NCBI GenBank assembly: GCA_043814605.1
Contig: JBDRJV010000047.1
Location: forward strand, 5,077 to 69,076
Reading direction: 5' to 3'
From: Candidatus Omnitrophota bacterium
GTDB taxonomy: Bacteria; Omnitrophota; Gorgyraeia; B26-G9
DNA: 64,000 nucleotides
Part shown: piece by piece, positions 10,353-48,176 of the stretch
Layout of the letters: every line of letters begins with the position of its first letter
Numbering within the stretch: the stretch's first letter is position 1
The notes under the pieces: model-generated
Seen by the model: only the letters and a program-made list of their open reading frames with translations
Database searches by the model: none
What the model was told of the DNA's origin: nothing
Made by a program: the position numbers and the translations under genes

Positions 10353-10420
10353 TCTCTCTACTAGTTGAAAACATTAATATATTTTCAGTGAAATCCCGCT
10401 AAGGCGGGGCTACTCGCTAC
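10353..10420 (+). repeat. REP-like dispersed palindromic element, copy 1
   Basis: ctctctact-agttgaaaacattaatatattttcag-tgaaatcccgctaaggcggggctactcgctac. Contains the CCCGC-TAAG-GCGGG hairpin. Confidence 0.8.
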
Positions 10421-10602
10421 TATTTACTTAAAAAAATAAGTTTAATTATTTTGTAATGAATAAAATATGAATGGTGAGTTTTGCAAGTGAACTGTATATA
10501 TAAGCGTATTTTAGAGGAATTGAGTATTTTTCTCTCTACTTGCTACTCGCTTGTGCCCGTAAGGGTACTACTCTCTACTTAAAAAAAGAAGGAGCTAAAA
10601 AC

Positions 10603-11820
10603 GTGCGCAACAACAGAAGAGTCGTAGTTACAGGAATTGGGATTGTTTCGGCATTAGGCATTGGCCGGGATAAGTTTTGGGATAATATTAAAAAAGGTAA
10701 GTCAGGGATATCTAAGATTACCTCAATAGATACATCTGCTTATAAATGCCATTATGGCGGAGAAGTAAAAGATTTTAATCCTGAAGATTTTATCCCGAAA
10801 AGAAGAATAAAGTTTTTAGGCAAAACATCACAGTTGGCAATTGCCGCGGCTTATTTAGCTTTACAAGATTCCGGTATTCCTTTAAAGCGAATCCCCAAAG
10901 AATCAATGGGTGTGATCATGGGAACAACTATTGGGGAGAAAGCTATAGAAGAGTTAGCTGCACAATGGGCCAAAGGCGGATTAAAAGAAATAGACAGAAA
11001 AAAACTTTTCCAGGCTGCTGCCAATAATATTCCGGCTAATGTAGCTATACAGTTTAAAGCCATGGGATTAAATTGTTTAATCCCCAATGCCTGTGCTGCG
11101 GGTAATTATGCAATTGGTTATGGATATGATTTAATAAGGAATAAAGATTTAAATTTTGCTTTAGTCGGTGGAAGTGAATCGTTTTCACCTTTAGCCTATG
11201 CCGGGTTTCAAAGGCTTTATGCTATGTCTCCGGATAAATGCAGTCCTTTTGATAAAAATAGAAAAGGCATGATGCTGGGAGAAGGTTCTGGAATATTATT
11301 TTTAGAATCTTTAGAATCAGCTTTAAAACGCAAAGTAAAGATTTACGCGGAAATTTTAGGTTACGGCTTATCCTGCGATGCTTATCATGCTACAGCGCCT
11401 GACCCCAAAGGCATTGCTCGAGTTATGCAAAAGGCGTTAGATCAAGCGAATATTAGTTATAAAGAGGTTGATTATGTTTGCGCGCACGGTACAGGTACTC
11501 CGGCTAATGATAAAGCCGAAAGCGCGGCAGTCAAGGAAGTTTTCAAAGAGAGGCATAAAGAAGTATTAGTTAGTTCAATAAAATCAATGCTCGGGCATAC
11601 AATGGGTGCGTCTTCAGCGATTGCAGGAGCAGCTTGTTGCTTAGGGATAAAAGAAGGAATTGTGCCGCCGACCATAAACTTTGAAACTCCGGATCCGGAA
11701 TGTGATATAGACTGCGTGCCGAATAAAGCGCGTAAAAAAGATCTGAATGTTGTTTTAAATAACGGCTTTGCTTTTGGCGGAAATAATTGCTGCGTGGCGT
11801 TTGGGAAATATAGCGGATAG
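10603..11820 (+). CDS. beta-ketoacyl-ACP synthase (FabF/KAS II-like), catalytic triad intact
   Basis: NACAAGNYAIG (Cys), CAHGTGT (His), SMLGHTMG (His). GTG start at 10603 with the same upstream leader (tactctctacttaaaaaaagaaggagc) as the 6771 gene. The ORF track extends to an upstream TTG at 10540, which I do not favour. Confidence 0.85.
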   Translation: MRNNRRVVVTGIGIVSALGIGRDKFWDNIKKGKSGISKITSIDTSAYKCHYGGEVKDFNPEDFIPKRRIKFLGKTSQLAIAAAYLALQDSGIPLKRIPKESMGVIMGTTIGEKAIEELAAQWAKGGLKEIDRKKLFQAAANNIPANVAIQFKAMGLNCLIPNACAAGNYAIGYGYDLIRNKDLNFALVGGSESFSPLAYAGFQRLYAMSPDKCSPFDKNRKGMMLGEGSGILFLESLESALKRKVKIYAEILGYGLSCDAYHATAPDPKGIARVMQKALDQANISYKEVDYVCAHGTGTPANDKAESAAVKEVFKERHKEVLVSSIKSMLGHTMGASSAIAGAACCLGIKEGIVPPTINFETPDPECDIDCVPNKARKKDLNVVLNNGFAFGGNNCCVAFGKYSG

Positions 11821-12121
11821 AAAAAAGTTACAAATTATAAATTATGAGTTACGAGTGAAAAGCTGAATTCTGAAAGCTGATGGCTGATAGCTAGTAATTT
11901 ATTTAACTGGTAAAGGGTACACAGGACAACCGGGTTAATGAAGGAAATATTTATACCTGCTAAAATTTATGTCAGGGGAACAATAACTCTGCTAAAATTT
12001 TAATAACTTGATAAAAAACAGTAAATGATTTATACAAAACAGGGTTGACAGTACTGATTTGTATAAGATTGAATATTTTAGAATTTATTTAAAAATATGG
12101 AGATAGAATCAGTATAGGCAG

Positions 12122-12230
12122 TTTTATACATCCGCGGCCTAAAACCGCGCCCATTTATGGCGCGGATAAAAGGAGGCCGCTTGAGTATTCCACCTCAGGA
12201 ACCACGGGCTTTAGCCCGTGGGGGTTCCAT
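12122..12230 (+). repeat. ~110-bp GC-rich structured element, copy A
   Basis: Nested stems GCGGCC/GGCCGC and CCGCGCC/GGCGCGG, plus hairpin GGAACCACGGGC-TTTA-GCCCGTGGGGGTTCC. Sharply GC-rich against the AT-rich background. Confidence 0.7.
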
Positions 12231-12497
12231 TAAAAAGCAATAACATTAATATCTGCAGTTAGTTGCATTATTAAAAAAGATAATTTTTCAAAAACAAAAA
12301 ATGACAAATTTAAAGTGATACTTTAAAATTATCAATAATTTATACAAATTAGTATTGACAGTACTGATTTGTATAAGTTTGGATGCGTAATAAGGATAAT
12401 AATATATTGTAAGGAAAAACATGACTTGACAGCAATATATTATGCCTGCTATAATTTATATAAAATTAATAATAACCCTGCTAAAATTTAGAAAAAA

Positions 12498-13745
12498 ATG
12501 TATATACATAGAGATCTCGAAAAAAAAATTATTAAATACTTAGATAGTCCGGAAATTTTGGCGATCATTGGCCCTCGGCAGAGCGGGAAGACTACGCTAA
12601 TTAAAAATGTTCTAAAAACTCTTAAAAACGCTGTATACATAGATTTTGAAGACAGAGAAGTTCTGGAATTATTTAATAGTGATATAAAGTCTTTTTATAA
12701 GTTATATGTTAAAGATTCTAAATATTTATTTGTTGACGAATTTCAATACGCGAAAGAAGGCGGCAAAAAGTTAAAGTATTTATATGATACTTTTAAACTA
12801 AAAATTATTATTTCCGGCTCTTCCAGCCTTGATCTTACAAAGCAGGCGATAAAATATTTAGTGGGGAGAGTTTTTGTTTTTTACCTTTATCCTTTTAGTT
12901 TCAAGGAATATCTGGATTTTCGCGATAAGTCATGTTATGAGAATATTTATTTAGATATCCATGAAACTGTCAAAGAATATTTTTTATACAAGAAAAAATC
13001 TATTCCGCTTATTTCTCCAGAAATGATAAAAAAAATTAATAAATATTATCATGAATATGCGATTTTTGGCGGATACCCCCGTGTAGTTCTGGCTAAAGGT
13101 ATTGAAGAAAAAATAACCGTTCTGAAAAATATTTACAACACTTACTTTTTAAGAGAAATAAGGGATATCCTACAGCTGAGTACAGAAGTGGAATTACAAA
13201 AGCTGATCAAATGCCTAGCGCTTCAGACAGGCAGTATAGTCTCATATAAAGAATTAAGCCAAACAACAAGTTTAAATTATAATAACCTGTTAAAACATTT
13301 AAATATCCTTGAGAATACTTTTGTGATAAAAAAACTTCTGCCGTTTTTTCGTAATAAAAGAACAGAAATCGCCAAAGCTCCGAAAATTTATTTTGTGGAT
13401 AATGGTTTGAGAAATATGTCGGTAGGTAATTTTCAGGACATGGGAGAACGAGTTGATAGAGGCAGTATTAATGAGAATTTTATTGCCGGAGAATTATTAA
13501 AGCAGGAATTTGCCATAAATTACTGGAGAACAAAATCTAACGCGGAAGTTGATTTTATCTTGGAAAAACAGGGCAAACACAGCGCGATTGAAGTAAAATC
13601 CAGATTGTCTTCGGATAAAATCGGTAGAGCATTAATCGCTTTTAAAGAAAAATATCCTGATTTTAGAATAACTATTGTTTCTGAAAATTATTATAGTTTT
13701 AATAAAAAAGAGCAGGTTTTTTTTCTGCCGTTATTTTTTGTTTAA
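12498..13745 (+). CDS. AAA+ ATPase with C-terminal DUF4143 / PD-(D/E)xK-like domain (COG1373 family)
   Basis: GPRQSGKTT, FVDEFQ, C-terminal EVDFIL...AIEVKS. Confidence 0.8.
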   Translation: MYIHRDLEKKIIKYLDSPEILAIIGPRQSGKTTLIKNVLKTLKNAVYIDFEDREVLELFNSDIKSFYKLYVKDSKYLFVDEFQYAKEGGKKLKYLYDTFKLKIIISGSSSLDLTKQAIKYLVGRVFVFYLYPFSFKEYLDFRDKSCYENIYLDIHETVKEYFLYKKKSIPLISPEMIKKINKYYHEYAIFGGYPRVVLAKGIEEKITVLKNIYNTYFLREIRDILQLSTEVELQKLIKCLALQTGSIVSYKELSQTTSLNYNNLLKHLNILENTFVIKKLLPFFRNKRTEIAKAPKIYFVDNGLRNMSVGNFQDMGERVDRGSINENFIAGELLKQEFAINYWRTKSNAEVDFILEKQGKHSAIEVKSRLSSDKIGRALIAFKEKYPDFRITIVSENYYSFNKKEQVFFLPLFFV

Positions 13746-13876
13746 AAAAGAAATAATTGCTGTGTCGCGTTTGGGAAATATAAATAATGTTGTGTAATGT
13801 TTAATGTGTTATGTGTAATGAATTTTTTATGCATCAAGCTCCAGGCTGCAAGCTTCAGGGGTTTTAGCTTGCGACT

Positions 13877-13934
13877 TGTTGAGAACATTAATATATTTTT
13901 AGCGAAATCCCGCTAAGGCGGGGCTACTCGCTAC
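13877..13934 (+). repeat. REP-like element, copy 2 (preceded by the gcatcaagctccaggctgcaagc module from 13831)
   Basis: Near-identical to copy 1. Confidence 0.8.
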
Positions 13935-13950
13935 TTTTAAAAGAGGCTTC

Positions 13951-15047: not shown

Positions 15048-15647
15048 ATGGATATTTTAAAAATTATAAAGGAAAGAAAGAGTATTAGAAAATATCAGGA
15101 TAAGCCTATTCCAAAAGAAATAATTAATAAAATAATTGAAGCAGGTATTTGGGGGCCGTCTGTCCCAAGTTTTTTAAAAATCCAACCGTTTAAATTTGTT
15201 GTTGTAACTAAAAAAGAAATAATCGCAAAAATTTCTTCGCTATTAGAAAAGAAATCGTTAAAAGTTTCTGTAGCAGCTAAAATTTTACTGAAAGGAGCAA
15301 GCAATATTATTAATGCTGTTCCGGTGGTAGTTTTTGTTTACAAAACAAAAGATCTAGAGAATTCGCAGCATAAGTTTAAAGAGGTATATTTAAGTCTTAA
15401 AAAAGTGGTTAAAACTGCTCAAATATCTGCAATTTCAGCAGCAATCCAAAATATGATTTTAACTGCTGAAAAATTAGGGGTAGGGTCTTGCTGGTTAGAT
15501 ATCCCCTTGTTTTGCGAACAAAACATTAACAAGGTGCTAAATAACAATAATAAATTAATTGCTGTATTAACTCTTGGTTATCCTGCAGAAAAAGGGAAAC
15601 GATCACCAAGGAAACCATATGAGGAAGCAGTGGAATTTATAACATGA
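15048..15647 (+). CDS. nitroreductase-family flavoprotein
   Basis: N-terminal RKSIRKY motif typical of the nitroreductase family, about 200 aa. Confidence 0.7.
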   Translation: MDILKIIKERKSIRKYQDKPIPKEIINKIIEAGIWGPSVPSFLKIQPFKFVVVTKKEIIAKISSLLEKKSLKVSVAAKILLKGASNIINAVPVVVFVYKTKDLENSQHKFKEVYLSLKKVVKTAQISAISAAIQNMILTAEKLGVGSCWLDIPLFCEQNINKVLNNNNKLIAVLTLGYPAEKGKRSPRKPYEEAVEFIT

Positions 15648-17110
15648 ATAATAAATATGATGACATAATAATCGGAGCTGGTATTGGGGGATTAGTTTGT
15701 GGATGTTACTTAGCGAAACAAGGAAGAAAAGTTTTGATTGTTGAACAACATTTCCAAGCAGGTGGGTATTGTAGTTCATTTAAAAGAAAAGGTTTTACTT
15801 TTGATACTTCAATTCATTCAATAGGAAGTTTAAGAGAAGGAGGTAAAGTAAGAAAAATATTTAATGAACTTGGACTAGAAGATGAAATAGAATTAACCAG
15901 GTCAGACCCTACCGATATTTTAATTTTTCCGGGTCATACGATTTTTATAAGAAACAAGTTAAATGATACTATAGCTAGTTTTCAGGAATCATTTCCACAT
16001 GAATTTGAAAAAATTAAAGACTTTTTTTATTTTATTTACAATTTTGATTTTATAAAAAACTATTCAAATTTAAAAACTAAAACATTCAAAGATGTTTTAA
16101 ATATTTATTTTCAAGATGAAAAATTGAAATCTATAATCAGTATTATATTAGGCAATATTGGATTGCCTGCGAGCAGAGTCGCTGCATTACCAGCCATTGT
16201 TCTTTATAAAGAATTTATTTTGGATGGGGGGTATTATCCTAAAGGAGGCATGCAATCATTTTCAAATGGTTTAGCAAGAAAATTTAAAAAATTAGGAGGA
16301 GAATTAAGATTAAAAAATAAAGTTGAAAAAATAATTATAAAAAAAAATAAAGCGGTAGGAATAATTATTGGTAAAGAAGAAAAAATATTTTCTGATAATG
16401 TTATTTCGAATTGTGATGCTACGCATACTTTTTTAGATCTTATAGGGAAAAAATTTTTGTCTGATAAGTTTGTTAAAAAAATTGATAATCTTGAAACTTC
16501 AGCATCTGCTTTTGTTGTATATTTAGGTTTAAATAAGAGTTATAATTCAATTTTAAAAAACAGATGTAGTTGGTGGTGTTATTTAAGTGATAAATATGAT
16601 GTGGAAAAGGTATTTTCAGATATTAAAAGAAAAAATAAACCATATTCTGATAATTTTGTGTTTTGTATATTTACATCCTCACATGATAGATCTCTCGCTC
16701 CTGAAAGAGGAGAGACAATCTCTTTAGTTAGTCTAGCGACAGTTAAGGATCTAGATTTTTGGAAAAAAAATAAGGAAAAATTTGCAGATGATTTAATTAA
16801 AAGAGCAGAAAAATTTATTCCAGAGCTATCAAAACATATTATTGTAAAAGAAATAGCAACTCCACATACTATGCAGCGATATACTCTTAATAAAGATGGG
16901 GCTGCTTATGGATGGGCTTCTACTGTAACTCAAATTGATAAAGAAATTATGCCTAGAGAAACAAACATAAAAAATTTATACTTAACTGGACATTGGACTA
17001 CTCAGGGAAGTGGCCAGGGAGGGGTTTCAACTGTAGCTTATTCTGGTAGAAGTATAGCTAAATTACTGATTAGAAGAAAAAATTTTTATGAGAAAAAAGG
17101 GATTAAATAA
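15644..17110 (+). CDS. FAD-dependent oxidoreductase, phytoene-desaturase/amine-oxidase (CrtI-like) family
   Basis: Dinucleotide-binding IIGAGIGGL...VEQHFQAGGYC near the N-terminus, about 488 aa. The stop overlaps the start of the downstream kinase (ATGA). Confidence 0.75.
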   Translation: MNNKYDDIIIGAGIGGLVCGCYLAKQGRKVLIVEQHFQAGGYCSSFKRKGFTFDTSIHSIGSLREGGKVRKIFNELGLEDEIELTRSDPTDILIFPGHTIFIRNKLNDTIASFQESFPHEFEKIKDFFYFIYNFDFIKNYSNLKTKTFKDVLNIYFQDEKLKSIISIILGNIGLPASRVAALPAIVLYKEFILDGGYYPKGGMQSFSNGLARKFKKLGGELRLKNKVEKIIIKKNKAVGIIIGKEEKIFSDNVISNCDATHTFLDLIGKKFLSDKFVKKIDNLETSASAFVVYLGLNKSYNSILKNRCSWWCYLSDKYDVEKVFSDIKRKNKPYSDNFVFCIFTSSHDRSLAPERGETISLVSLATVKDLDFWKKNKEKFADDLIKRAEKFIPELSKHIIVKEIATPHTMQRYTLNKDGAAYGWASTVTQIDKEIMPRETNIKNLYLTGHWTTQGSGQGGVSTVAYSGRSIAKLLIRRKNFYEKKGIK

Positions 17111-19329
17111 TGAATTTATTTTCTTTAACTAGTATAGTTGTAATTCTTTCTACTTTGGGGCTTGGATTTTTTATTTTTATAACAAATAAAAATAATAAAG
17201 TTGCTAGTTCTTATGGAGCGTTAGCTATTGCAGCAGGTATCTGGGGAATAGGAGCTTTTTTATTTTCGACTACTTCTAACAAAGAAACAGCGTTATTTGG
17301 GTGGAGAATAGCACATATAGGTATAATATTTACACCGCCACTTTTTTTCCATTTTGTTTGTAGATTAGCTAATTTAAACAAAAAAAGGTTGCTTTTTATT
17401 AGTTATTTGTCGGGCTTGTTATTTTTGTTACTTTGTTTTTTAGATACTAAATTATTTTTAGGGGATATAGATTTTGTTTTTAATAGTTTTTATTTTTTAG
17501 CTTGGTATAAACAGAAAAATATAGGTTACTTATTATATTATATTCTGTTTTATCATATTTTATTAGGATATGCATTTTTACTATTGTTGCAGTTTTATAC
17601 AAAAATAATAGGTATTATGCGTATTCGAGTCAAATATATAATTTTAGCTTCTGTAATTGGTTGGTTAGGTCCACATGGTATGTATGTATTAATTTTAGGA
17701 ATTAAAAAATTATATCCAATTTCAAATCTTTGTATAGGTATATATCCATTTATTATTGCATACGCAATTGCAAAACATAGACTTATGGATGTCAAGGTTG
17801 CAATTACACGTAGTGCAATTTTACTTATAGTGTATATTTGTATAGTTGGATTCCCTCTATTAGTAATAGGAGTAGGTAAAGAATACTTGCAGAATAGTTT
17901 TGGAAATAAATGGTTTTACCCTCCTTTAGCATTATATACATTATTAGCTTTGTTTGCTCCGTATATTTATTTAACTTTACAAACAAGAGCTGAGCAAAAA
18001 AGAATCAGACAGCAAATACATCTGCATCAATCTTTAAAAGCAGCTTCTAAAACAACAATTGAGGTGCAAAGTATTGATAAACTAGCTAAAATTATTCCCA
18101 GATATTTAATCCGGCTTTACAGCCGGTTAGATAATAAAATTAGCCATATTACTTTGTTTCTTAAGGATAAGAAAAAAGAAGAATATCATTTGCGTTCATC
18201 TGTAGGAAACCAAAAATTGCAATCAGATATCTTGATTAATTCCGACAGCTACCTTGCGAAATGGTTTACCAAGGTCAGAGAAGTTTTAGTGGAAAATGGA
18301 GCCGTAAAAGCCAAAGAAGTGGAAGTTTTAGTGTATGAGGATATTGATTTTTGGATGAATAAAGCCAGTATTTTGAGTGTGCCTTACAAAGGATTAAATA
18401 AAGTACTGAACAATTTAAAAAAAGAAATGAAAGAATTAAAAGCCAGTGTGATTTTGCCCTCTGTCTACCAAAAAGAATTGTTAGGATTTTTGATTTTAGG
18501 CGAGAAAACTCCGGATCCGTATTCATTAAATGATATTGATACTTTTTCTATTCTGGCTAATGACAGTGCTATGGCGTTTAAGGCTGCGCAATTATTTGAG
18601 GATTTAAAGATTGCGCAGGCACGCTTGATCCAATCAGAAAAACTAAACCTTCTGGGCCAGCTGGCCTCATCCATGGCGCATGAAATTAATAATCCTCTGG
18701 CAATTATTTCCGGCAATGTGCAGTTATTGCTTATGGATGAATCGGATGAGAGCAAGATGAAATTATTAACTAAAATCAATGACCAGACTGAACGCGGTTA
18801 TAAAATTATCCACCGCTTGCTAAATTTTTCCAAGCTTCCTAAAGAAGACATTAAAGAAATTGATATTAATCGTCTGGTAGATGAAACACTGGAATTGATC
18901 AATCATAAGATCGTGCACGGTAATATTGAACTGCAAAAGGATTTTAAAGCAACAGATATAATCCGCGGTAATCCCACGCAAATCCAGGAAGTTATCTTAA
19001 ACCTGTGTGTTAATGCTATCCAAGCTATGCCCCAGGGCGGGAAACTGATGATCAATACCAGCCGCGCGGGCGATATGGTGCAGATAGAAGTTAAGGATAC
19101 AGGAAAAGGCATCCCGCCGGAAGAAGTAAAGGATATATTTGATCCGTTCTTTACCAAGGGCAAGGAAAACGGTACAGGGTTGGGATTGTTTGTGGCCAGC
19201 CAGATCATGAGCCTGCATAACGGATTAATAAAAGTTAAAAGTAAGGTTGGCGAAGGCACTAGTTTTGTGTTAAAATTTGCTTTAGGCGATGAAGGGCCGA
19301 AAGGCACGGAAAGTGGGGTCAGGTCTTGA
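17110..19329 (+). CDS. sensor histidine kinase, multi-TM sensor + GAF-like middle + HisKA + HATPase_c
   Basis: Multi-TM N-terminus. HEINNPLAIISGN H-box. GTGLGLFVA G2 box. Long near-identical blocks shared with the 21453 kinase. Confidence 0.85.
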   Translation: MNLFSLTSIVVILSTLGLGFFIFITNKNNKVASSYGALAIAAGIWGIGAFLFSTTSNKETALFGWRIAHIGIIFTPPLFFHFVCRLANLNKKRLLFISYLSGLLFLLLCFLDTKLFLGDIDFVFNSFYFLAWYKQKNIGYLLYYILFYHILLGYAFLLLLQFYTKIIGIMRIRVKYIILASVIGWLGPHGMYVLILGIKKLYPISNLCIGIYPFIIAYAIAKHRLMDVKVAITRSAILLIVYICIVGFPLLVIGVGKEYLQNSFGNKWFYPPLALYTLLALFAPYIYLTLQTRAEQKRIRQQIHLHQSLKAASKTTIEVQSIDKLAKIIPRYLIRLYSRLDNKISHITLFLKDKKKEEYHLRSSVGNQKLQSDILINSDSYLAKWFTKVREVLVENGAVKAKEVEVLVYEDIDFWMNKASILSVPYKGLNKVLNNLKKEMKELKASVILPSVYQKELLGFLILGEKTPDPYSLNDIDTFSILANDSAMAFKAAQLFEDLKIAQARLIQSEKLNLLGQLASSMAHEINNPLAIISGNVQLLLMDESDESKMKLLTKINDQTERGYKIIHRLLNFSKLPKEDIKEIDINRLVDETLELINHKIVHGNIELQKDFKATDIIRGNPTQIQEVILNLCVNAIQAMPQGGKLMINTSRAGDMVQIEVKDTGKGIPPEEVKDIFDPFFTKGKENGTGLGLFVASQIMSLHNGLIKVKSKVGEGTSFVLKFALGDEGPKGTESGVRS

Positions 19330-19367
19330 AACTTGACAAAAAGTGATTTGAATAATAATATTGTAAT

Positions 19368-20213
19368 ATGGCAAGACCATTAAGAATAGAATATGACGGA
19401 GCAGTATATCACGTAACATCGCGAGGTAATGCGAAAGAACCTATCTTTAAGAATGCTGAAGATAGGTTTAATTTTTTTGAAGTACTAGCAGAAGCAAAGA
19501 AAAAGCATAATATTATATGTCATGCGTATTGTTTAATGGATAATCATTATCATTTAGTTGTGGAAACTCCTGAGGGAAATTTGAGTAGGGCAATGAGGCA
19601 TATAAATGGAGTTTATACGCAAAGTTTTAACCGCAAGCATAAAAGAGTAGGTCATGTGTTTCAAGGTAGATATAAAGCGATGTTGGTAGATAGGGATGAA
19701 TATCTATTGGAAGTAATTAGATATGTGGTTTTAAATCCCGTACGAGCTGGATTAGTTAAAAGTGCGGAAAAATGGCAATGGAGTAGTTATTGTGGAACTG
19801 TGGGGATGAGCAAAAAAGAGAGATTTCTGGATACAGATTGGGTGTTGGAATATTTTGGAGGCACAAAAAATATTGCTCAAAAAAAATACCGAGAATATGT
19901 AGATGAGGGAATTGAAAAAGAAATAGTAAAGAAAAAGATTAGTCAGCAGAGTATTCTTGGCAGTGAAAGTTTTAAGCAAAAAATCTCTAAGTATGTGCAA
20001 GGGAAAAAAGAAATAAAAGAAATTTCAAGGTGCCAACGTTATGTGGGACGTCCTCAATTAGAAGATATTTTTAAGGGAGCGCAAAAAGTCAAAGCAGAAA
20101 GAAATGCTTTAATTAGAAAAGCAATAACAGATTACGGGTATCAGCAAAAAGAGATAGCGCAGTGGTTGGGGATGCATTATACCAGCGTAAGTAAAATACT
20201 AAGCAGGGAATAA
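19368..20213 (+). CDS. IS200-like Y1 (HUH) transposase, REP-associated (RAYT)-like, with C-terminal DnaA_C-like HTH
   Basis: HUH motif HYHLVVET. Catalytic-Tyr region GRYKAM. The C-terminal ~80 aa resemble the DnaA C-terminal DNA-binding domain. Paralog at 43640. Confidence 0.7.
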   Translation: MARPLRIEYDGAVYHVTSRGNAKEPIFKNAEDRFNFFEVLAEAKKKHNIICHAYCLMDNHYHLVVETPEGNLSRAMRHINGVYTQSFNRKHKRVGHVFQGRYKAMLVDRDEYLLEVIRYVVLNPVRAGLVKSAEKWQWSSYCGTVGMSKKERFLDTDWVLEYFGGTKNIAQKKYREYVDEGIEKEIVKKKISQQSILGSESFKQKISKYVQGKKEIKEISRCQRYVGRPQLEDIFKGAQKVKAERNALIRKAITDYGYQQKEIAQWLGMHYTSVSKILSRE

Positions 20214-20274
20214 AAAGCTAAAATTCACCGCAAATGCGGGACAGGCAAGACCTGAATCCATGCCTTAGGAAATG

Positions 20275-20376
20275 GAACTCCCACGGGCTAAACATGGTTC
20301 CTGGGGTGGAATACTCAAGCGGCATCCTTTTATCCGCGCCATAAATGGGCGCGGTTTTAGGCCGCGGATGTATAAA
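20275..20376 (-). repeat. ~110-bp GC-rich structured element, copy B (inverted; 60 nt downstream of the transposase stop)
   Basis: Reverse complement matches copy A at ~93% identity. Confidence 0.7.
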
Positions 20377-20421
20377 ATGCTAAAATTCAAGACCTGACCC
20401 CATTACGCTTTATTCGCAGAA

Positions 20422-21438
20422 TTGTTGAATGAGTTCTTTGAAAATAGTGAATTAAAATTAACTTTTGAAGTTTTATTATGCAATATTGGAATAAGCGCTA
20501 AAAAAGTGGCAGCATTATCAGCGTTGATTTTTTACAGAGATTATATTTTAGATGGTGGTTACTATCCTATGGGGGGAATGGATGAGTTTGCTAAAATTTT
20601 ATCAAACAGATTTGTTGAGTTAGGAGGAGAATTAATTTTAAATAATAGAGTTAATAAAATTTGTTTGTATAAAAATACAATTAAAGGGGTAGTATTAAGC
20701 GATGGAAAGTTTATTGATAGTAAATTAGTTGTTTCTAATTCTGATGCTACTCAAACATTTAAAGATTTGTTAGCAGATATAGATACAAAAGAAAAAAAAC
20801 TGGTTGAGCAATTTAAAATTTCCCCACCATTATTTGCTTTGTATTTAGGATTAGATTGTAAGTATAGTGATTTTACAAATGAAACATGTAATATGTGGTG
20901 GGTTAAAACGAATGATTTGGATAGCTACTATTCTGATTTAAAAAATAATATTTTAAGCGACAGTAATAATTTTTTTATGACCAGTTTTCCTGCGGCACAT
21001 ACAAATAATGTTGATGCTAACATAAAAAACACTATGCAATTTTTTATGTATGCTCCATATGAAAATGAGGATTTTTGGGGTAAACATAGGATAAGAGTTG
21101 AAGATAAATTAATAAATGAAGCGTCTGCAATTTTTAAAGGGTTTAAAAAAAATATAAAAGTTAAAGTTAGTGCGACACCTTTAACGTTTAATCGGTATAC
21201 CTTAAATAGATCAGGTTCTCCTTACGGGTGGGCGTCAACATTGGACCAATTAAGCAATTCAGTTTTTCCTCAAAAAACGTCAATAAATAATTTATATTTA
21301 GTTGGGCATTGGTGTACCATAGGTAGCGGGCAAGGCGGGGTTCCAAAAGTATTGTTTTCGGGGAGAAAAGCTGCATATTTAATAACTAAGCAAGCAAAAA
21401 TGAAATGGAAATTTAAGAAAAATATTTTAACTTATTAA
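20422..21438 (+). pseudogene. 5'-truncated paralog of the CrtI-like FAD oxidoreductase (lacks the FAD-binding N-terminus)
   Basis: Aligns to residues ~155-488 of the 15644 ORF (ILDGGYYP, GHW.T.GSGQGGV) at ~40% identity. The reading frame begins right after the transposase-plus-GC-element. Confidence 0.6.
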
Positions 21439-21452
21439 GATTGGAATAAATA

Positions 21453-23684
21453 ATGAACCTTTTTTCTTTTTCGTCATTAATAGTTTTTGTATCAAATTTG
21501 ATTTTGACTATTTTTTTATTGATTCAAGGAAGGAAGCAAAAAGTTAGTTATATTTTGAGTATTTTTAGCTTGCTTGCTACTGTTTGGGGATTAGGCGCGT
21601 ATAAATTTTCTTCTACCAACTTGATTGAAGAAGCTTTATTTTGGAGAAAGATAGCTAATGTGGCAGTTATTTTTAGCCCTGTTTGTTACTATTATTTTAT
21701 ATGTGAATATTTAGAGTTAAAGAACAAAAAGCATAAAATGCTTCTTTTTGTATCTTTTCTTTTTAGCATATTTTTTGTTTTTTCGAATTTCTTTTTACCG
21801 CCTAAGTTTTTTGTTGGTGGTTTAAGAATCGTTTTTAGCCAGTTCTACTATCCAGATTGGTTTCAATATAAGAGTTTTTTGTATTTATTTTTTTATGGAA
21901 CATTTTATTTGTTATTATTAGGATATGCTTTTCTTTTATTGCTGACGGCATATGTAAAAGCTACCCCTAAGCTAAGAAATACATTGAAGTATTTTATTTT
22001 GGGTTCAGTATTTGGATGGTTAGGCCCGACGTTTATGTGGCTGATAGAATTTAGAATAGACATATATCCTTATGCAAATTTCTTAATAGCAATATACCCA
22101 GCAATTTGGGCCTATGCTATTATAAAACATCGTTTAATGGATATTAAAGTTGCAATTACGCGCGGAGCAATTCTTTTAATAGTTTACGGATTTATCGTAG
22201 GATTGCCATTATTAACAATTTTAATAGCAAAAGATTATTTGCAAAATAATTTTGCAGATAAATGGTTTTATCCGCCATTGGCTTTGTATACTCTGTTAGC
22301 TTTATTTGCGCCGTATATTTATCTAACATTGCAAACAAAAGCTGAGCAAAAAAGAATACGTCAGCAAATCCATTTGCATCAATCTTTAAAAGCCGCGTCT
22401 AAAACTACCATTGAAGTGCAAAGCATTGATAAGCTGGCTAAAATCATTCCTAGGTACCTAATTAGGCTTTACAGCCGATTGGACAATAAGATCAGCCACA
22501 TTACATTATTCCTTAAAGATAAGAAAAAAGAAGAGTATAATTTGCGTTCATCTGTAGGAAACCAAAAATTGCAATCAGATATTTTGATTAATTCCGATAG
22601 CTACCTTGTGAAATGGTTTACCAAGGTCAGAGAAGTTTTAGTAGAAAACGGAGTATTAAGAGCCAAGGAAGTGGAAGTATTGGTTTATGAGGATATTGAT
22701 TTTTGGATGAATAAGGCTAGTATTTTAAGTGTGCCTTATAAAGGCTTGAATAAAGTATTATTAAATCTAAAAAAAGAAATGAGGGGATTAAAAGCCAGTG
22801 TGATTTTACCCTCTGTCTACCAAAAAGAATTGTTAGGGTTTTTGATTTTAGGCGAGAAAACTCCGGATCCGTATTCTTTAAATGATATTGATACTTTGTT
22901 AATCCTATCAAATGATATGACAATAGCTTTAAAATCACAGGAAATTATTGAAGATTTGACAAAAACACAAGCACATTTAGTGCAGTCAGAGAAACTAAAG
23001 GTTGTGGGAGAAATAGCTTCTTGTTTAGCTCATGAAGTAAAAAATCCGCTAACAACTCTAAAAACTTTCTCTGAATATTTACCACAAAAGATGCAAGAAA
23101 AAGATGAAGAATTTATTGAAAAGTATCGCAGATTGGTTCCTCCTGAGATTGAAAGGATAAATTCAATAGTTCAGAAATTATTAGATTTTTCTAAGCCAAA
23201 TCTTCCTAATTTTCAAAAAACAGATTTAAAAGCGTTGATAAAAGAGGTGGTAGAGTTTTTGAGTGAGAAGTTTTTAAAAAATAAAATAAAAGTAATAGAA
23301 AATTATTCGAAAGATTCCCTAATGCTAAAAATTGATCAGCACCAGATAAGACAAGTATTGTTGAACCTGATATTAAACGCGATAGATGCTATGCCCGAAG
23401 GAGGCAATATTAGTATAAGCTCAGAAATGTTAGATAACGCTATAAAAATAGAAATTAGTGATACAGGCAAAGGGATTCCTGAGGATGAGTTGAAAAATAT
23501 CTTTGATCCGTTCTTTACCAAGGGTAAGGAAAACGGTACAGGGCTAGGCTTGTTTGTGGCCAACCAGATCATGAGCCTGCATAATGGTTTAATAAAAGTT
23601 AAAAGTAAGTATGGCGAAGGCACCAGTTTTGTGCTAAAATTTGCTTTAGGCGATGAAGGGCCCAAGGGAACGGAGAAGAGTTAA
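21453..23684 (+). CDS. sensor histidine kinase, multi-TM sensor + GAF-like middle + HisKA + HATPase_c
   Basis: HEVKNPLTTLKTF H-box. The middle domain and the last ~90 aa are near-identical to the 17110 kinase. The DHp domain matches the 30290 kinase instead. Confidence 0.85.
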   Translation: MNLFSFSSLIVFVSNLILTIFLLIQGRKQKVSYILSIFSLLATVWGLGAYKFSSTNLIEEALFWRKIANVAVIFSPVCYYYFICEYLELKNKKHKMLLFVSFLFSIFFVFSNFFLPPKFFVGGLRIVFSQFYYPDWFQYKSFLYLFFYGTFYLLLLGYAFLLLLTAYVKATPKLRNTLKYFILGSVFGWLGPTFMWLIEFRIDIYPYANFLIAIYPAIWAYAIIKHRLMDIKVAITRGAILLIVYGFIVGLPLLTILIAKDYLQNNFADKWFYPPLALYTLLALFAPYIYLTLQTKAEQKRIRQQIHLHQSLKAASKTTIEVQSIDKLAKIIPRYLIRLYSRLDNKISHITLFLKDKKKEEYNLRSSVGNQKLQSDILINSDSYLVKWFTKVREVLVENGVLRAKEVEVLVYEDIDFWMNKASILSVPYKGLNKVLLNLKKEMRGLKASVILPSVYQKELLGFLILGEKTPDPYSLNDIDTLLILSNDMTIALKSQEIIEDLTKTQAHLVQSEKLKVVGEIASCLAHEVKNPLTTLKTFSEYLPQKMQEKDEEFIEKYRRLVPPEIERINSIVQKLLDFSKPNLPNFQKTDLKALIKEVVEFLSEKFLKNKIKVIENYSKDSLMLKIDQHQIRQVLLNLILNAIDAMPEGGNISISSEMLDNAIKIEISDTGKGIPEDELKNIFDPFFTKGKENGTGLGLFVANQIMSLHNGLIKVKSKYGEGTSFVLKFALGDEGPKGTEKS

Positions 23685-23884
23685 AATTTAATATTGTGTA
23701 GTGTTTAATGTGTTATGTGTCATGAATTTTTATGCAGCAAGCTCCAGGCTGCAAGCTTCAGGGGTTTTAGCTTGCGACTTGAAGCTTGAGGCTTGTGGCT
23801 TATATTTTTTCATTAAACAATAAACTTTACACATTACACAAAAATTTACGGATATTATATTGATTTATACACGGAGGTTAAAAG

Positions 23885-24922
23885 ATGCTGGAGATTTTGG
23901 TTGTTGATGATGAGCAAGAAATTGCTAAGGCACTAAAGAGATTTTTTGATCAAAAAGGATATTCTGTCCATATTGCCCATGACGGGAAAACTGCTGTTGA
24001 GCTGGTTAGGCAGCACCGGCCTCACCTTGTGTTCTTAGATATTCGTATGCCGCTGATGGATGGGTTAAGTGTGTTACGGAATATCCGTAATTATGACACG
24101 ACAATAAAAGTAATCATGGTTACAGCTTTTGGTACAAAAGAAATTGTTAATGAAGCTATGCGCCTGGGCGCAGTGGATTTTATCCGCAAACCTTTTACCC
24201 GTACATATCTGGAGCAGGAAGTTATGGCTAAGGTTAGCATCCAGCTTTTTGAAGATCTTCGCCAGGAAGTAGATGAGAAAAATAAATTAATTGATCAGCT
24301 TGAGAATTTAAACCAGAGAGCAGCAAGAAATTTTTATCAGACCGTGCTTTCTCTGGCTGCCGCATTAGAATCACGGGATTATTATACCCATGGCCATTCT
24401 GAACGCGTGGAAATGTACAGTAAACTTATTGCCAAAGAATTAAAAACAACGCTGGGTTTAGATATTAATAAGAAATTTATGGATGATTTGCATATTGAAT
24501 CAAGATTGCATGATATTGGTAAGATCGCGGTTTCAGATACAGTCCTGAATAAACCCGGAAGATTGACTCATGCTGAATACAATGAAATAAAAAGGCATCC
24601 GGGTGAAAGCGCGAGAATTCTGGCGCCATTAGATAATATTAAAGAAAATATAGAAGTTATTTATTCTCATCATGAACGCATTGACGGAAAAGGTTATCCG
24701 GATAATAAGACTGATAAAAAAATCCCATTAAGAGCCAAGATTATTGCTGTAGCTGATGCTTTTGATGCGATGACGTCAGACCGTCCGTACCGAAAAGCAA
24801 TGTCTGGAAAATATGCATTTACCGAACTTGAAAAAAACAAAGAAATTCAGTTTGATGCAGAAGTTGTTCATGCTTTTGTCTCTGCATATAATAAAAAAGA
24901 AACAATAGCTTTAAAAATTTAA
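23885..24922 (+). CDS. response regulator with HD-GYP phosphodiesterase output domain
   Basis: REC domain (VVDDE, FLDIRMPLMDG) plus HD..H..HHER.DGKGYP motifs. Confidence 0.85.
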   Translation: MLEILVVDDEQEIAKALKRFFDQKGYSVHIAHDGKTAVELVRQHRPHLVFLDIRMPLMDGLSVLRNIRNYDTTIKVIMVTAFGTKEIVNEAMRLGAVDFIRKPFTRTYLEQEVMAKVSIQLFEDLRQEVDEKNKLIDQLENLNQRAARNFYQTVLSLAAALESRDYYTHGHSERVEMYSKLIAKELKTTLGLDINKKFMDDLHIESRLHDIGKIAVSDTVLNKPGRLTHAEYNEIKRHPGESARILAPLDNIKENIEVIYSHHERIDGKGYPDNKTDKKIPLRAKIIAVADAFDAMTSDRPYRKAMSGKYAFTELEKNKEIQFDAEVVHAFVSAYNKKETIALKI

Positions 24923-26334: not shown

Positions 26335-26422
26335 AAACAAAAGAGAAACAAATAATTCAAATAATAATATTGATTTAACGCGGGCAATTCATGAATTGCC
26401 CCTTATATGCGGAGGAATGTGC

Positions 26423-27515: not shown

Positions 27516-27587
27516 GCTACTTTCTACTCTTTGAGAACATTAATATATTTTCAGCGAAATCCCGCTAAGGCGGGGCTCCTCGCTACT
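27516..27587 (+). repeat. REP-like element, copy 3 (immediately upstream of mtnP)
   Basis: ctactctttgagaacattaatatattttcagcgaaatcccgctaaggcggggctcctcgctac. Confidence 0.8.
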
Positions 27588-28493: not shown

Positions 28494-28555
28494 ACCCCGT
28501 CTCAGCGGGATTTCGCTAAAAATTAAATTAATGGTCTCAACAAGTCACAAGTCTA
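28494..28555 (-). repeat. REP-like element, copy 4, variant hairpin CCCGCTGAGACGGGG (immediately downstream of mtnP, inverted relative to copy 3)
   Basis: Reverse complement matches the consensus. Followed by the gcttgcagcctggaacttgatgcat module. Confidence 0.75.
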
Positions 28556-30069: not shown

Positions 30070-30092
30070 ATATCTCCATTTTATGTTTAAAT

Positions 30093-36417: not shown

Positions 36418-36484
36418 CAAGTAGCCCCGCCTTAGCGGGATTTCGCTTAAAATATATTACTGTTCTCAACAAGTAGAGAGTATT
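36413..36484 (-). repeat. REP-like element, copy 5
   Basis: Reverse complement: atactctctacttgttgagaacagtaatatattttaagcgaaatcccgctaaggcggggctacttgcta. Confidence 0.8.
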
Positions 36485-43571: not shown

Positions 43572-43580
43572 TAGTAATAG

Positions 43581-44651
43581 GGGACGTAGTTAGATAATTA
43601 GATATTGACAGGAATAAAAAGTAATGATAGAATGAGTATATGCCAAGGCAAGGAAGAATACATATAGAAGGCGGTATATACCACGTTATTCAGCGGGGGA
43701 TAGAGCGGCGAGAGATATTTAAAGATGATGAAGACCGGGAGGAATTTTTAAAGCGGCTTGAAGAAGGATTAAGATATACAAGAGATAAATGTTATGGTTG
43801 GGTGTTGATGCCCAACCATTTTCATTTAGTGATCAGAACAAGTTTGATGCCATTGAGTGATTTGATGAGAAGATTACTTACCGGATATGCGCTATATTTC
43901 AATAAAAGGCATAAGCGAAGCGGATATTTGTATCAGGGAAGGTATAAATCGATCTTATGTCAAGAAGACGCATATTTGTTGGAGTTAATAAGATATGTGC
44001 ATTTAAATCCGCTGCGAGCAGGGATGGTAAAAGAAGTAAGTGGGTTAAGGGGATATAAATGGAGCGGGCATGTAGAATTGGTAGGATCAAATAAATGGGA
44101 GTGGCAATCTACAGAAGATATCTGGGGTTTATTTGGAAAAAGAAAAAATAAAGCAATAAAGAGCTATGAGGAATTTATTATAGAAGGGGTAGGAAACGTA
44201 AGAAAGGGAGAATTTTCCGGAGGGGGTTTAATCCGGAGTATTGGAGGCTGGAAAGAGGCAGAAAAATTCCGAAGGGAAAAATGGCTGCAGGAAGCAGATG
44301 AGCGGATATTAGGAGATGGAGATTTTGTTAGCCAAACATTGCAAGAAGCCGAAGAAAAAATGGAACGCCGGGAAAAACTTAAACAAGATGGTTGGGATAT
44401 TGAAAGGGTAATTCAAAAGGTATGCAAATTGATGGATGTTTCTTCAGGGGAAATAAAACGTGAGAGCCGCAGGAGCAGGGTGGCGCAGGCAAAGAGTGTG
44501 GCCGTATATTTAGCAAATAAGGAATTGGGGATAAGAGGATCTGAGCTTGCTGAGTATTTTGAAATAACGCGAGCTTCGATAAGCGCCTCGATACAAAGGG
44601 GGAAAAAGATTGTCGAAGATAATGAATATCTAATTATCTAACTACGTCCCT
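43581..44651 (+). mobile_element. 1.07-kb element bounded by perfect 24-bp terminal inverted repeats (GGGACGTAGTTAGATAATTAGATA) carrying the Y1 transposase gene
   Basis: Left IR at 43581-43604, right IR at 44628-44651 (reverse complement identical). The right IR overlaps the stop of the transposase ORF. Confidence 0.6.
43640..44641 (+). CDS. IS200-like Y1 (HUH) transposase, RAYT-like, with C-terminal DnaA_C-like HTH
   Basis: HFHLVIRT HUH motif. GRYKSIL Tyr region. C-terminal VAQAKSVAVYLANKELGIRGSELAEYF resembles the DnaA C-terminal domain. Confidence 0.7.
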   Translation: MPRQGRIHIEGGIYHVIQRGIERREIFKDDEDREEFLKRLEEGLRYTRDKCYGWVLMPNHFHLVIRTSLMPLSDLMRRLLTGYALYFNKRHKRSGYLYQGRYKSILCQEDAYLLELIRYVHLNPLRAGMVKEVSGLRGYKWSGHVELVGSNKWEWQSTEDIWGLFGKRKNKAIKSYEEFIIEGVGNVRKGEFSGGGLIRSIGGWKEAEKFRREKWLQEADERILGDGDFVSQTLQEAEEKMERREKLKQDGWDIERVIQKVCKLMDVSSGEIKRESRRSRVAQAKSVAVYLANKELGIRGSELAEYFEITRASISASIQRGKKIVEDNEYLII

Positions 44652-45757: not shown

Positions 45758-46879
45758 ATGAAAAAAATATTGTTGTTATATATATCTAATAATTCAGGCC
45801 ATCACCGGGCAACCAAAGCCATAGAAGAAGCTCTGTATTTGGCTTCGAATGAGGTTAAAGTGATAAACTTGAATTGCTTTAATTATACTAATCCTGTATT
45901 GGAAAAAGTGATTAATAGTATATATAACAAGGTAATTAAAGTAAAACCGGAAGTATGGGAATACCTTTACGATAATCCCAAAGTTGTGCGCCGAACTCAA
46001 AAACTGCGTAAACTTATCCATAAACTTAATTCTAAAAAATTAAAAAAATTGATTTTTAACTTCCAGCCGGATGCGGTGGTCTGTTCACAGGCTTTTCCCT
46101 GCGGCATGGTGGCTGATTTTAAAAAAACTTATGACCAGAAATACAGCTTAATCGGCGTGCTTACGGATTATGCGCCGCATTCTTACTGGATGTACGATAA
46201 TGTAGATGCGTATATTGTGCCTAGCCAACAGACAAAAACCAGATTTGTTAATAACGGAATAGATAAAAAGAAACTTTTTCCTTTTGGTATACCGATCAGC
46301 CAGAAATTTTCCCAAAAATCAAACTATAAAGAAGCATTAGAGATTTTAAAATTAGATGAAGGAATTCCTACAATCTTAATCATGGGTGGAGGCCAGGGCC
46401 TCGGGCCGATCGAAGATTTGGTGTATGCAATCAATACAATCGAAAAACAATTTCAGGTGATTATTGTTTGCGGTACTAACAAGAAATTGAAAAAATGGCT
46501 GGAAAAAAGAAGGTTGCTTTTCAGAAAGAAAATGGCTATTCTGGGCTATACTAAAGAGGTAGAAATGCTTATGGATGTTGCGGATTTAATCGTGACAAAA
46601 CCCGGCGGGTTAACCACAGCCGAAGCACTAACCAAAAATTTACCGATTGTAATTGTTAATCCTATCCCCGGGCAGGAAGCAAAGAATACAGAATTTTTAT
46701 TAAAAGAAGGGGTGGCGGTAAAAGCAAAAAATCCTTTAGATGCTGCAGTACAGATCGAAGAATTACTGGGTAATCCTGAACAGTTAAAAAGGATGAAAGC
46801 TGCGGCAAAAAAACATGCACAGCCGAATTCAGCTAAGAACATCGCTGAGCTTGTGCTTAAATTAATTAAACAAGAGTAA
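45758..46879 (+). CDS. diacylglycerol glycosyltransferase (MGDG-synthase/UgtP-like, GT28 family)
   Basis: N-terminal LLLYISNNSGHHRATKA resembles the UgtP/MGDG_synth N-domain. C-terminal GT28 fold (GGGQGLG...VTKPGG.T..E). Confidence 0.7.
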   Translation: MKKILLLYISNNSGHHRATKAIEEALYLASNEVKVINLNCFNYTNPVLEKVINSIYNKVIKVKPEVWEYLYDNPKVVRRTQKLRKLIHKLNSKKLKKLIFNFQPDAVVCSQAFPCGMVADFKKTYDQKYSLIGVLTDYAPHSYWMYDNVDAYIVPSQQTKTRFVNNGIDKKKLFPFGIPISQKFSQKSNYKEALEILKLDEGIPTILIMGGGQGLGPIEDLVYAINTIEKQFQVIIVCGTNKKLKKWLEKRRLLFRKKMAILGYTKEVEMLMDVADLIVTKPGGLTTAEALTKNLPIVIVNPIPGQEAKNTEFLLKEGVAVKAKNPLDAAVQIEELLGNPEQLKRMKAAAKKHAQPNSAKNIAELVLKLIKQE

Positions 46880-46884
46880 AATCA

Positions 46885-47766
46885 ATGGTAATGTTTTTCT
46901 TGTATTCAATCGGTCAGTGGCTGGCTTTATCATTACCGCTTTCCTTAGCCTATCGTGTCGGGGCATGGTTCACTTTTTTTAAATATGTATTTTCCCCCGG
47001 GGAACGCCGGGCGATGCGCAATAATCTAAAAGTTATCTTAGGGGAAAATCATCCGGGAGTTAAAAAATACCCCAAACAAATCTATGCAAATTTTGGCAAG
47101 TATTTGGTGAATTTTTTCCGTACAGAAGAAGTTGATAAACAATTTATTGAAAAATATATCCGGATTAAAAATAAGCAAAATATGGAAGAAGCTCTGAGTA
47201 AAGGCAAAGGAGCTATCGGACTGACTGCGCATATTGGCAATTGGGAACTTTGTGCGCAGGTTATGGGAATTCTCGGATATAAAATGAATGCTGTGGCGCT
47301 TAGCCATAATAATAAAAAAATCGATGATTTTTTTGTGCAGCAAAGGCAAAGAAAAGGGATTAATGTTATTCCTGTGGGGATTAGCGTAAGAAAATGTTTT
47401 TCTGCTTTAAAAAATAATGAAATTGTCGGGATTTTAGGAGACCGGGATTTTTCTGGTGAAAACGGCATATTTGTTAATTTTTTGGGCAAAGAATTATTTG
47501 CACCCTTAGGAGCAGCGGTGTTGAGTTTAAGAACCGGGGCGGCAATTGTGCCGGCTTTTGTCATCCGGGATGAAAAAGATGACCGCTATTTTGATTATAT
47601 ATTTGAAAAACCAATCTATCCTGAGAAAACCGGTAATGAAAAACAAGAAGTAAGAACCTTGACCCAAAAATATGTGGATGTTATTGCCAAATATGTAAAA
47701 AAATATCCCACGCAGTGGTTTGTGTTTCATGAATTCTGGAAAGCGACAAAAAGTGAAATAGTCTAA
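46885..47766 (+). CDS. lysophospholipid / lipid A-type acyltransferase (LpxL/HtrB family)
   Basis: The HIGNWE acyltransferase motif and size are typical of the family. 5 nt after the upstream GT. Confidence 0.7.
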   Translation: MVMFFLYSIGQWLALSLPLSLAYRVGAWFTFFKYVFSPGERRAMRNNLKVILGENHPGVKKYPKQIYANFGKYLVNFFRTEEVDKQFIEKYIRIKNKQNMEEALSKGKGAIGLTAHIGNWELCAQVMGILGYKMNAVALSHNNKKIDDFFVQQRQRKGINVIPVGISVRKCFSALKNNEIVGILGDRDFSGENGIFVNFLGKELFAPLGAAVLSLRTGAAIVPAFVIRDEKDDRYFDYIFEKPIYPEKTGNEKQEVRTLTQKYVDVIAKYVKKYPTQWFVFHEFWKATKSEIV

Positions 47767-48114
47767 AATGTTCAGAGAACATTTTAGACTAAAGACAACA
47801 GACTATAGACCAAAGACCAAAATTTTGAAAAACTTTTATTCTTGTACGATTGTAAATTGGTGTTAACGGAATAAAGTGATTAGCTGATTATTGGGAATCG
47901 AATAAAAACGCACTTTGTAAAATTATGTTTATTTTCTAATAATTTATGCCTGAAGACTTCGCCGCCAAAAAACCATCCCTGGTTTACGGCGTTTCGACGT
48001 CCTGTCTTCATCTTCATACATAAATTAAAGAAAATTACACATAATTTTTCCATAATTGCTTTTTTTATTTGATTCCCCGATAATTAAGATTATAAATAAT
48101 AGTTTTTTGTTTTT

Positions 48115-48176
48115 AACTTGTGACTTGTTGAGAACATTAATTTAATTTTTAGCGAAATCCCGCTGAGACGGGGAAA
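48115..48176 (+). repeat. REP-like element, copy 6, variant hairpin CCCGCTGAGACGGGG
   Basis: cttgtgacttgttgagaacattaatttaatttttagcgaaatcccgctgagacgggg. Same variant as copy 4. Confidence 0.75.

Follow-up and report, generated by a model that had tools for sequence, protein, structure and literature searches.

The question raised by this locus is whether a short hairpin repeat that recurs between its genes and two transposases encoded among the copies of that repeat form one system or two unrelated ones. The DNA concerned is a stretch of 64,000 nucleotides (referred to below as the window) from contig JBDRJV010000047.1 of assembly GCA_043814605.1, ordinary chromosomal DNA of a Candidatus Omnitrophota metagenome-assembled genome (MAG), which an initial annotation had read as holding a family of repetitive extragenic palindrome (REP)-like elements together with two Y1 enzymes of the REP-associated tyrosine transposase (RAYT) kind. 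The joint explanation favored here, which we regard as about evenly poised between right and wrong, is that the repeat is a site-specific miniature element inserted at heptad junctions and mobilized in trans by a Y1 enzyme, and that the two transposase genes are two separate TIRtrons, i.e., units bounded by terminal inverted repeats (TIRs). A REP-like hairpin repeat accompanied by two RAYT-like Y1 genes with helix-turn-helix (HTH) tails is thus an accurate description of the locus, whereas their coupling into a REP/RAYT system is not supported.

When the copies are aligned together with their flanks, the conserved unit proves to be a core of 45-46 nt (TTGAGAACATTAATATATTTTnAGCGAAATCCCGCTAAGGCGGGG) composed of an AT-rich 5' half, an invariant AGYGAAAT "foot" (GAAAT being the conserved 5' foot of the top strand) and, at the 3' end, a single short GC hairpin. 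Exactly six cores, named c1 to c6, are spread over 38 kb of the window, a count that repeat finding shares with both a regular-expression and an nhmmer search; a 35-nt probe with at most three mismatches recovers four of them against 0.00 expected from shuffled sequence, and the nhmmer profile, made from seven cores (the six of the window and a relative from another genome, L003, described below), picks up no further, diverged copy either in the window or in fetched loci totaling ~150 kb. Since all six lie between the listed open reading frames (ORFs), in both orientations, the intergenic six-copy family of the initial annotation is confirmed and its copies are not fragments of a coding gene; the length of ~60 bp then assigned to the element must be corrected, because the remainder of that consensus belongs to a flanking heptamer array. 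The 5-bp hairpin CCCGC-TAAG-GCGGG likewise holds for four window copies, whereas only 4 bp (CCCG/CGGG) are left in c4 and c6, which do share, as had been noticed, a variant loop (GCTGAGAC) and, in addition, a 1-nt insertion. Loop sequences differ (TAAG, CTTG, TGAGA) but the stem is maintained, and folding z-scores range from -2.6 to -3.9 for four of the copies with a 5-bp stem. The stem-loop, with its 4-5 bp stem, occupies 14 nt, the rest of the 45-nt unit being mostly non-palindromic, and none of the six window copies forms a doublet of the REPIN or BIME (bacterial interspersed mosaic element) type. A search against Rfam 15 gave no match for the window at the gathering threshold, and one copy tested alone gave chance-level matches (E of at least 0.35). 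Integron attC sites and CRISPR were also considered and dropped, there being no integrase or cas gene, housekeeping neighbors and no regular spacing.

The position of the cores is as constrained as their sequence. Each of them separates two neighboring units of a heptanucleotide array exactly at their boundary, keeps the register of the array and points the same way as its units, and heptad phase and co-orientation are identical in all seven copies. The array is of the type CTACTNN (GTAGNNN on the opposite strand) at c1, c3, c5 and the right side of c2, and of the type NNNCTTG at c4, c6 and the left side of c2. Mean pairwise identity is 0.89 within the core, falls to 0.64 and 0.59 over the 21 nt next to it and is ~0.52 farther out; the junctions are seamless, with no target duplication, and the seven copies have no TIRs. 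Arrays also occur with no core, at 6736(+), 9868(-), 10536/10568(+), 23764(+) and 54413(-), typically just before a ribosome-binding site (RBS) or just after a stop codon. One of them constitutes an exact empty site: the reverse complement of 9868-9889 reads CTCTCTACTAG.CTACTCGCTAC, that is, the 11 nt to the left and the 11 nt to the right of c1, identical at 22/22 positions, with the core missing. This array is the left inverted-repeat arm of a 23S_rRNA_IVP-family (four-helix-bundle) gene (9891-10256) that is flanked by inverted heptad arrays of ~24 nt, the whole spanning 9865-10421, and it is the right arm that c1 interrupts. In addition, the 94 nt to the left of c2 have a ~95% identical counterpart at 23689-23781, a resemblance that breaks off precisely where the c2 core begins. 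Edges this sharp, an empty site that matches at every base and a heptad phase shared by all seven copies are best accounted for by insertion specific to both site and orientation.

Several other observations concern these arrays. The 23S_rRNA_IVP gene with its inverted heptad arms resembles an intervening-sequence cassette, and the array at 10530-10582, which contains the mini-hairpin CTTGTGCCCGTAAGGGTA, is possibly a deleted copy of the element. A third repeat family, the imperfect palindromic module ATGAATTTTTATGCAKCAAGCTCCAGGCTGCAAGCTTCAGGGGTTTT (13819-13865, 23722-23768 and, on the minus strand, 28556-28602), stands before NNNCTTG arrays at three sites, two of which carry a core.

Outside the window the element is scarce. 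Two exact-pattern scans of the GTDB species genomes yielded 0 matches, and so did the first exact pattern in metagenomes; a looser hairpin pattern gave three matches in metagenomes, of which L003 alone is a true relative, L001 and L002 being rejected as chance hairpin matches in GC-rich DNA. L003, located on an unrelated contig, has the same stem and the same heptad phase as the window copies and a different loop. As it carries the same architecture, the element family is not confined to one genome, nor therefore to this window, such confinement being an outcome that, according to the initial annotation, would speak against its reading; the family is nevertheless rare in public data.

With regard to the two Y1 genes (Y1#1 and Y1#2), their products are Y1_Tnp HUH proteins (Pfam E = 7e-13 and 2.5e-10, respectively) and, judging from the HYH/HFH and RYV.LNP tyrosine-helix motifs read in their sequences, both are intact HUH enzymes, as the initial annotation of two IS200-like HUH transposases implied. 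The RAYT character and the DnaA_C-like tail that it had ascribed to both need to be apportioned. Y1#1 exceeds the cutoff of the NCBIfam model REP_Tyr_transpos (NF047646; 96 bits, cutoff 80) and matches the Escherichia coli TnpA-REP structure in the PDB (4er8, E = 0.002), whereas Y1#2 remains below that cutoff with 69 bits. Conversely, it is Y1#2 that carries a Bac_DnaA_C tail above the Pfam threshold (34-36.5 bits, cutoff 31.5), its family profile matching DnaA domain IV structures in the PDB (E = 0.0025); Y1#1 has no Pfam DnaA_C match, only sub-threshold ones to HTH_23 (E = 0.003) and HTH_28 (E = 0.02), and ends in the short HTH form. The two tails are homologous all the same, since Y1#1 aligns end to end with the Y1#2 family profile, the terminal HTH included (hhalign probability 100%). 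Protein searches with either sequence returned at least 8000 candidates each, and both tail architectures are very common.

Each gene is enclosed by its own TIRs: a perfect 16-nt inverted repeat in TIRtron 1 and, in TIRtron 2, a perfect 26-nt repeat starting with GGGACGTAGTTAG, whose right arm overlaps the stop codon of Y1#2 (Table 1). Neither TIR is found elsewhere in the window. Homologues of Y1#2 with 63-65% identity in Endomicrobiales and Elusimicrobia have the same TIR in unrelated neighborhoods, its two arms placed 59-64 nt ahead of the ATG and 16-18 nt inside the 3' end of the gene, and Omnitrophota homologues of Y1#1 retain TTCAAGACCTGACCCC at the stop codon. Both units have a sigma-70-like promoter immediately inward of the left TIR (TTGACA-17-TAATAT at 19333-19361 in TIRtron 1; TTGACA-17-TAGAAT at 43605-43633 in TIRtron 2), and the histidine kinase gene 17110-19329 takes its stop codon from the left TIR of TIRtron 1. 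The heptad-like look of the first TIR ("CTTGAAACTTGACA") was rejected as a sign of kinship with the arrays, as this stretch is a conserved TTGACA promoter that homologues also have.

Y1 genes bounded by TIRs instead of REPs are known as the TIRYT/TIRtron class, with the TIR consensus GGGGWSAS (Di Nocera et al. 2013, PMC3733652). Subclass 2.1.2 of the TnpA-REP-like proteins, which has either a "long" Bac_DnaA_C or a "short" HTH_23/28 tail and is reported not to be REP-associated, has been equated with these TIRYTs (Quentin et al. 2018, PMC6006769). From their sequence features, both Y1 genes match self-contained TIRtrons, i.e., TIRYT genes of TnpA-REP-like subclass 2.1: they combine a HUH and tyrosine core with a Bac_DnaA_C (Y1#2) or a short HTH_23/28-like (Y1#1) tail, have no flanking REPs, and possess TIRs that begin with GGGG(W)(S), the right one at or over the stop codon. 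The GGGGTCAG of Y1#1 fits GGGGWSAS exactly, whereas the TIR of Y1#2 (GGGGACGT...) deviates at positions 7-8, and TIRtron 1 further differs from the class by ~150 nt of additional GC-rich sequence inserted ahead of its right TIR. Hence, the fusion of a RAYT with DnaA_C, which the initial annotation did not recognize, turns out to be subclass 2.1.2, whose tails were described in 2018 (PMC6006769; PMC3733652).

The foreign GC-rich block of ~150 nt in TIRtron 1, between the stop codon and the right TIR, deserves a remark of its own. It contains one of two copies, ~96% identical, of a GC-rich and strongly structured repeat of ~110 nt (12122-12232 on the plus strand and 20265-20379 on the minus strand), whose RNA folds reach ~-50 kcal/mol (z = -3.9 and -4.4) and for which Rfam gave no match. 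The copy at 20265-20379 is bracketed by an 11-nt direct repeat (GCTAAAATTCA) and is identified as an insertion, because a homologous TIRtron (L011) has uninterrupted sequence. The other copy is bracketed by nested direct repeats (11951-12000 with 12440-12489, and 12015-12074 with 12325-12384), and a perfect TTGACA-18-TATAAT promoter match with TG lies within these repeats at 12426-12455.

Table 1. Cores, heptad arrays, Y1 genes and TIRtrons of the window (positions on the 64,000-nt stretch), with the related core found on another contig.
Feature	Position	Strand	Description
Core c1	10365..10409	+	45 nt, between heptads CTACTAG / CTACTCG
Core c2	13879..13923	+	45 nt, between CGACTTG / CTACTCG; ATG 13951 lies 27 nt downstream
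Core c3	27531..27575	+	45 nt, between CTACTCT / CTCCTCG; ATG 27609 lies 33 nt downstream
Core c4	28495..28540	-	46 nt, variant loop, between TGACTTG / TGAATTG
Core c5	36425..36469	-	45 nt, between CTACTTG / CTACTTG; hairpin end 7 nt from stop 36417
Core c6	48128..48173	+	46 nt, variant loop, between TGACTTG / AAACTTG; ATG 48209 ~35 nt downstream
Core L003	SDBU01000102.1 (unrelated metagenome contig)		Core with flanks CTCGCTACTTG / TTGAGTACATTAATATAATATTTAGCGAAATCCCGCCTTGGCGGGG / CTACTCTCTACTT, between convergent genes
Heptad array	6736-6747	+	No core
Core-less heptad array ("empty site")	9865..9889	-	22/22 match to joined c1 flanks
Heptad array	10530..10582	+	No core; 18-nt mini-hairpin CTTGTGCCCGTAAGGGTA in register
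Uninterrupted NNNCTTG array	23764..23800	+	Paralogous to left flanks of c2 and c4
Heptad array	54413-54438	-	No core
Y1#1 gene	19368-20213	+	281 aa, HUH = HYH, short C-terminal HTH
Y1#2 gene	43640-44641	+	333 aa, HUH = HFH, Bac_DnaA_C tail
TIRtron 1	19315..20401	+	TIRs GGGGTCAGGTCTTGAA at 19315-19330 and 20386-20401 (inverted)
TIRtron 2	43580..44650	+	TIRs GGGACGTAGTTAGATAATTAGATATT at 43581-43606 and 44625-44650 (inverted)

Single-strand "peel-and-paste" HUH/Y1 enzymes, such as those of the insertion sequence (IS) group IS200/IS605 and its miniature derivatives, produce tiny, hairpin-bearing and seamless inserts, and it is against this background that the 45-46 nt unit is best interpreted. 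The element would be a discrete, insertion-type and non-autonomous miniature unit that integrates at the junction of two units in pre-existing arrays (...CTACTNN^CTACTNN... or ...NNNCTTG^...), in a single orientation and with no target-site duplication, the arrays being those located beside gene starts and stops. We infer that it is mobile and that a Y1 enzyme, acting in trans by the single-strand route, is its most likely means of transport, a preference based on its tiny size, the one subterminal hairpin with its 5' foot, the strand- and sequence-specific target and the seamless junctions. The element resembles IS200/IS605 members and their miniature derivatives, the palindrome-associated transposable elements (PATEs), in lacking TIRs and target duplication, in inserting in an orientation-specific manner 3' of a short specific sequence, and in having a subterminal hairpin with a conserved 5' foot at the position of the "guide" sequence; it differs from them in having one hairpin instead of one per end and in being far smaller, and no cognate full-length IS related to it is present in the window. 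As for the target, cyanobacterial short tandemly repeated repetitive (STRR) sequences are also short tandem heptanucleotide arrays, intergenic and near gene boundaries. The arrays described here share these properties but have the units CTACTNN/GTAGNNN, belong to another phylum, act as the insertion target for a second element, and also form the inverted arms around the 23S_rRNA_IVP gene.

It is nevertheless important to stress what weighs against this interpretation. The known copies number just seven, and the case for an empty site is built on paralogous arrays of one genome, not on orthologous sites found both filled and empty. The hairpin is very short, its stem of 4-5 bp being invariant or simply weakened, with no compensatory changes; it is one hairpin where the ends of IS200/IS605 elements have two, and the long palindrome of REPs is missing. 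Recombination between similar arrays, or a selected regulatory function, could give the same picture, and the distance of 7-37 nt that separates the hairpin end from a gene start or stop in six of the seven copies could reflect function instead of target choice. Finally, none of the enzymes encoded in the window is linked to the element, and the two Y1 genes are candidate mobilizers solely as Y1 enzymes encoded in the same genome.

Such a link would be supplied by a canonical REP/RAYT unit (a REPtron), in which the hairpin repeat is the REP substrate of both Y1 enzymes and the DnaA_C or HTH tails aid targeting. The processing of REPs by TnpA-REP is HUH/Y1 single-strand chemistry, and the heptad arrays are runs of GTAG, the motif recognized by RAYTs (PMC8266576); dispersed repeat families have, moreover, been reported in some TIRYT genomes (PMC3733652). 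The element is also, like REPs, BIMEs and REPINs with their RAYTs (TnpA-REP groups 2 and 3), a small hairpin repeat scattered between genes, in either orientation and next to gene ends, in a genome that has Y1 genes, and the score of Y1#1 against REP_Tyr_transpos agrees with such a unit. The conserved tetranucleotide that was to be sought 5' of the hairpin does exist on the bottom strand as GTAG in c1, c2, c5 and L003, but c3 has GGAG in its place, c4 and c6 lack it, and it belongs to the flanking target array outside the conserved core. Further differences are that the palindrome, 20-50 nt in REPs, measures 14 nt here within a mostly non-palindromic 45-nt unit, with no REPIN or BIME pairs, and that the element adjoins neither of the Y1 genes, its closest copies lying 3.5-7 kb away. 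The element shows no sequence similarity to either TIR or TIRtron end, ~42 kb around Omnitrophota homologues of Y1#1 contain neither the core nor heptad arrays, and subclass 2.1/TIRYT is described as not REP-associated (PMC6006769). Because the genes are not flanked by the element, have their own unrelated TIRs, keep these TIRs in other phyla and have homologues in element-free loci, the coupling inferred in the initial annotation is unsupported; the REP/RAYT reading fails three defining features, and we consider it quite improbable. A related proposal, to which we give decidedly little credence, is that the 45-nt unit is a dispersed substrate of TIRYT-type Y1-HTH/DnaA_C enzymes, a single-hairpin cassette that one member of the family cleaves and joins as a single strand into GTAG-heptamer arrays at gene boundaries, with the help of a guide-target pairing between AGCGA of the core and TCGCT of the target. 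This conserved AGCGA can indeed be paired in most copies with TCGCT of the first downstream heptads, forming an extended RNA stem (-17.5 kcal/mol, z = -3.2), and the pairing, a lead at this stage, could be guide-target-like or merely a leader hairpin. The core might also be moved by an enzyme encoded outside the window, such as a site-specific recombinase, of the IS110 type or another, or else a classical IS200/IS605 TnpA, with the heptad arrays as attachment sites. This is unlikely in our view; no other transposase or recombinase is found among the annotated ORFs of the window, which is consistent with an outside source, as is the seamless, orientation-specific insertion into short repeated targets that is typical of IS110/IS1111-type elements, but we know of no 45-nt non-autonomous derivatives of the IS110-type or of such families.

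The remaining alternative dispenses with mobility: the core would be a selected regulatory cassette, acting in the forward orientation as a promoter or 5'-leader hairpin and in the reverse orientation as an mRNA 3'-end hairpin or weak terminator, and would have spread among similar heptad arrays by recombination or gene conversion. The closeness of the hairpin end to gene boundaries and the extended RNA stem mentioned above both suit such a role. On the forward side, start codons with RBS-like sequences follow the ends of c2, c3 and c6 at 27-35 nt, c2 together with its flank gives TTGCGA-17-TATATT, and GAAC-N16-CGAAAT inside the core may, in our own reading, loosely resemble promoters of the extracytoplasmic function (ECF) type; on the reverse side, c4, c5 and L003 directly follow the stop codons of the upstream genes and present, on that strand, the hairpin and then AUUUCGCUU. 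However, three of the seven copies point, in antisense, into a convergent gene at its 3' end, so that a promoter role is not general, the AAC of the ECF-like sequence is not conserved in c4 or L003, and the genes downstream have no function in common. We discarded a sigma-70 promoter within the core, as TTGAGA and TATATT are separated by a spacer of 7 nt and c2 alone reaches 9/12 by using its flank, and an intrinsic terminator in the forward orientation was rejected for want of a T-run after the hairpin. The abrupt loss of identity on either side of the core and the exact empty site favor insertion over selection, and we consider a purely regulatory cassette rather unlikely.

The neighborhood of the cores and TIRtrons offers some further observations. 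The genes of the window include those for PriA, GAPDH, fmt, a fabF-like KAS and a lipid A acyltransferase, many seven-transmembrane (7TM) histidine kinases and HipBA. The cores c3 and c4 stand in inverted orientation around a single PNP_UDP_1 phosphorylase gene (27609-28469), which their hairpin ends face, c4 being located between convergent genes with its hairpin end 25 nt from the stop at 28469; a transcript across both cores would form an RNA duplex of ~45 bp. Next to c4 is a HipBA-type toxin-antitoxin module of three genes on the minus strand (28637-30099; HTH_3, Couple_hipA and HipA_C). Tandem paralogous blocks occupy 15644-23684 and 23885-27472; they comprise a duplicated amine-oxidase and 7TM histidine kinase block, with TIRtron 1 between the two copies, and paired response-regulator/HD-GYP genes with an AAA_14-DUF4143 gene between them. 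Three such AAA_14-DUF4143 ATPase genes (8607-9833, 12498-13745 and 25186-26334) are found among paralogous operon genes, two of them sharing an upstream repeat (8080-8203 and 24951-25031), and another adjoins a Y1#1 homologue at a different locus (L010); these genes give the impression of selfish insertions, each made up of a single gene.

Overall, these results amount to a modest and descriptive finding. The Y1-DnaA_C architecture was already catalogued, and what is new about it here are two clean TIRtron examples and the conservation of their TIRs across phyla. The element, for its part, is a new small member of the hairpin-repeat class, a well-delimited repeat of REP size whose boundaries are unusually sharp and whose target, the junction between heptamer units, is precise; to our knowledge, such repeats have not been described in the candidate phylum Omnitrophota. 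The TIRYT-type Y1-HTH/DnaA_C enzymes form a very large family for which we know of no function, and if a Y1 enzyme proved to move the element, the latter would provide a simple in vitro substrate for this large and uncharacterized enzyme family.

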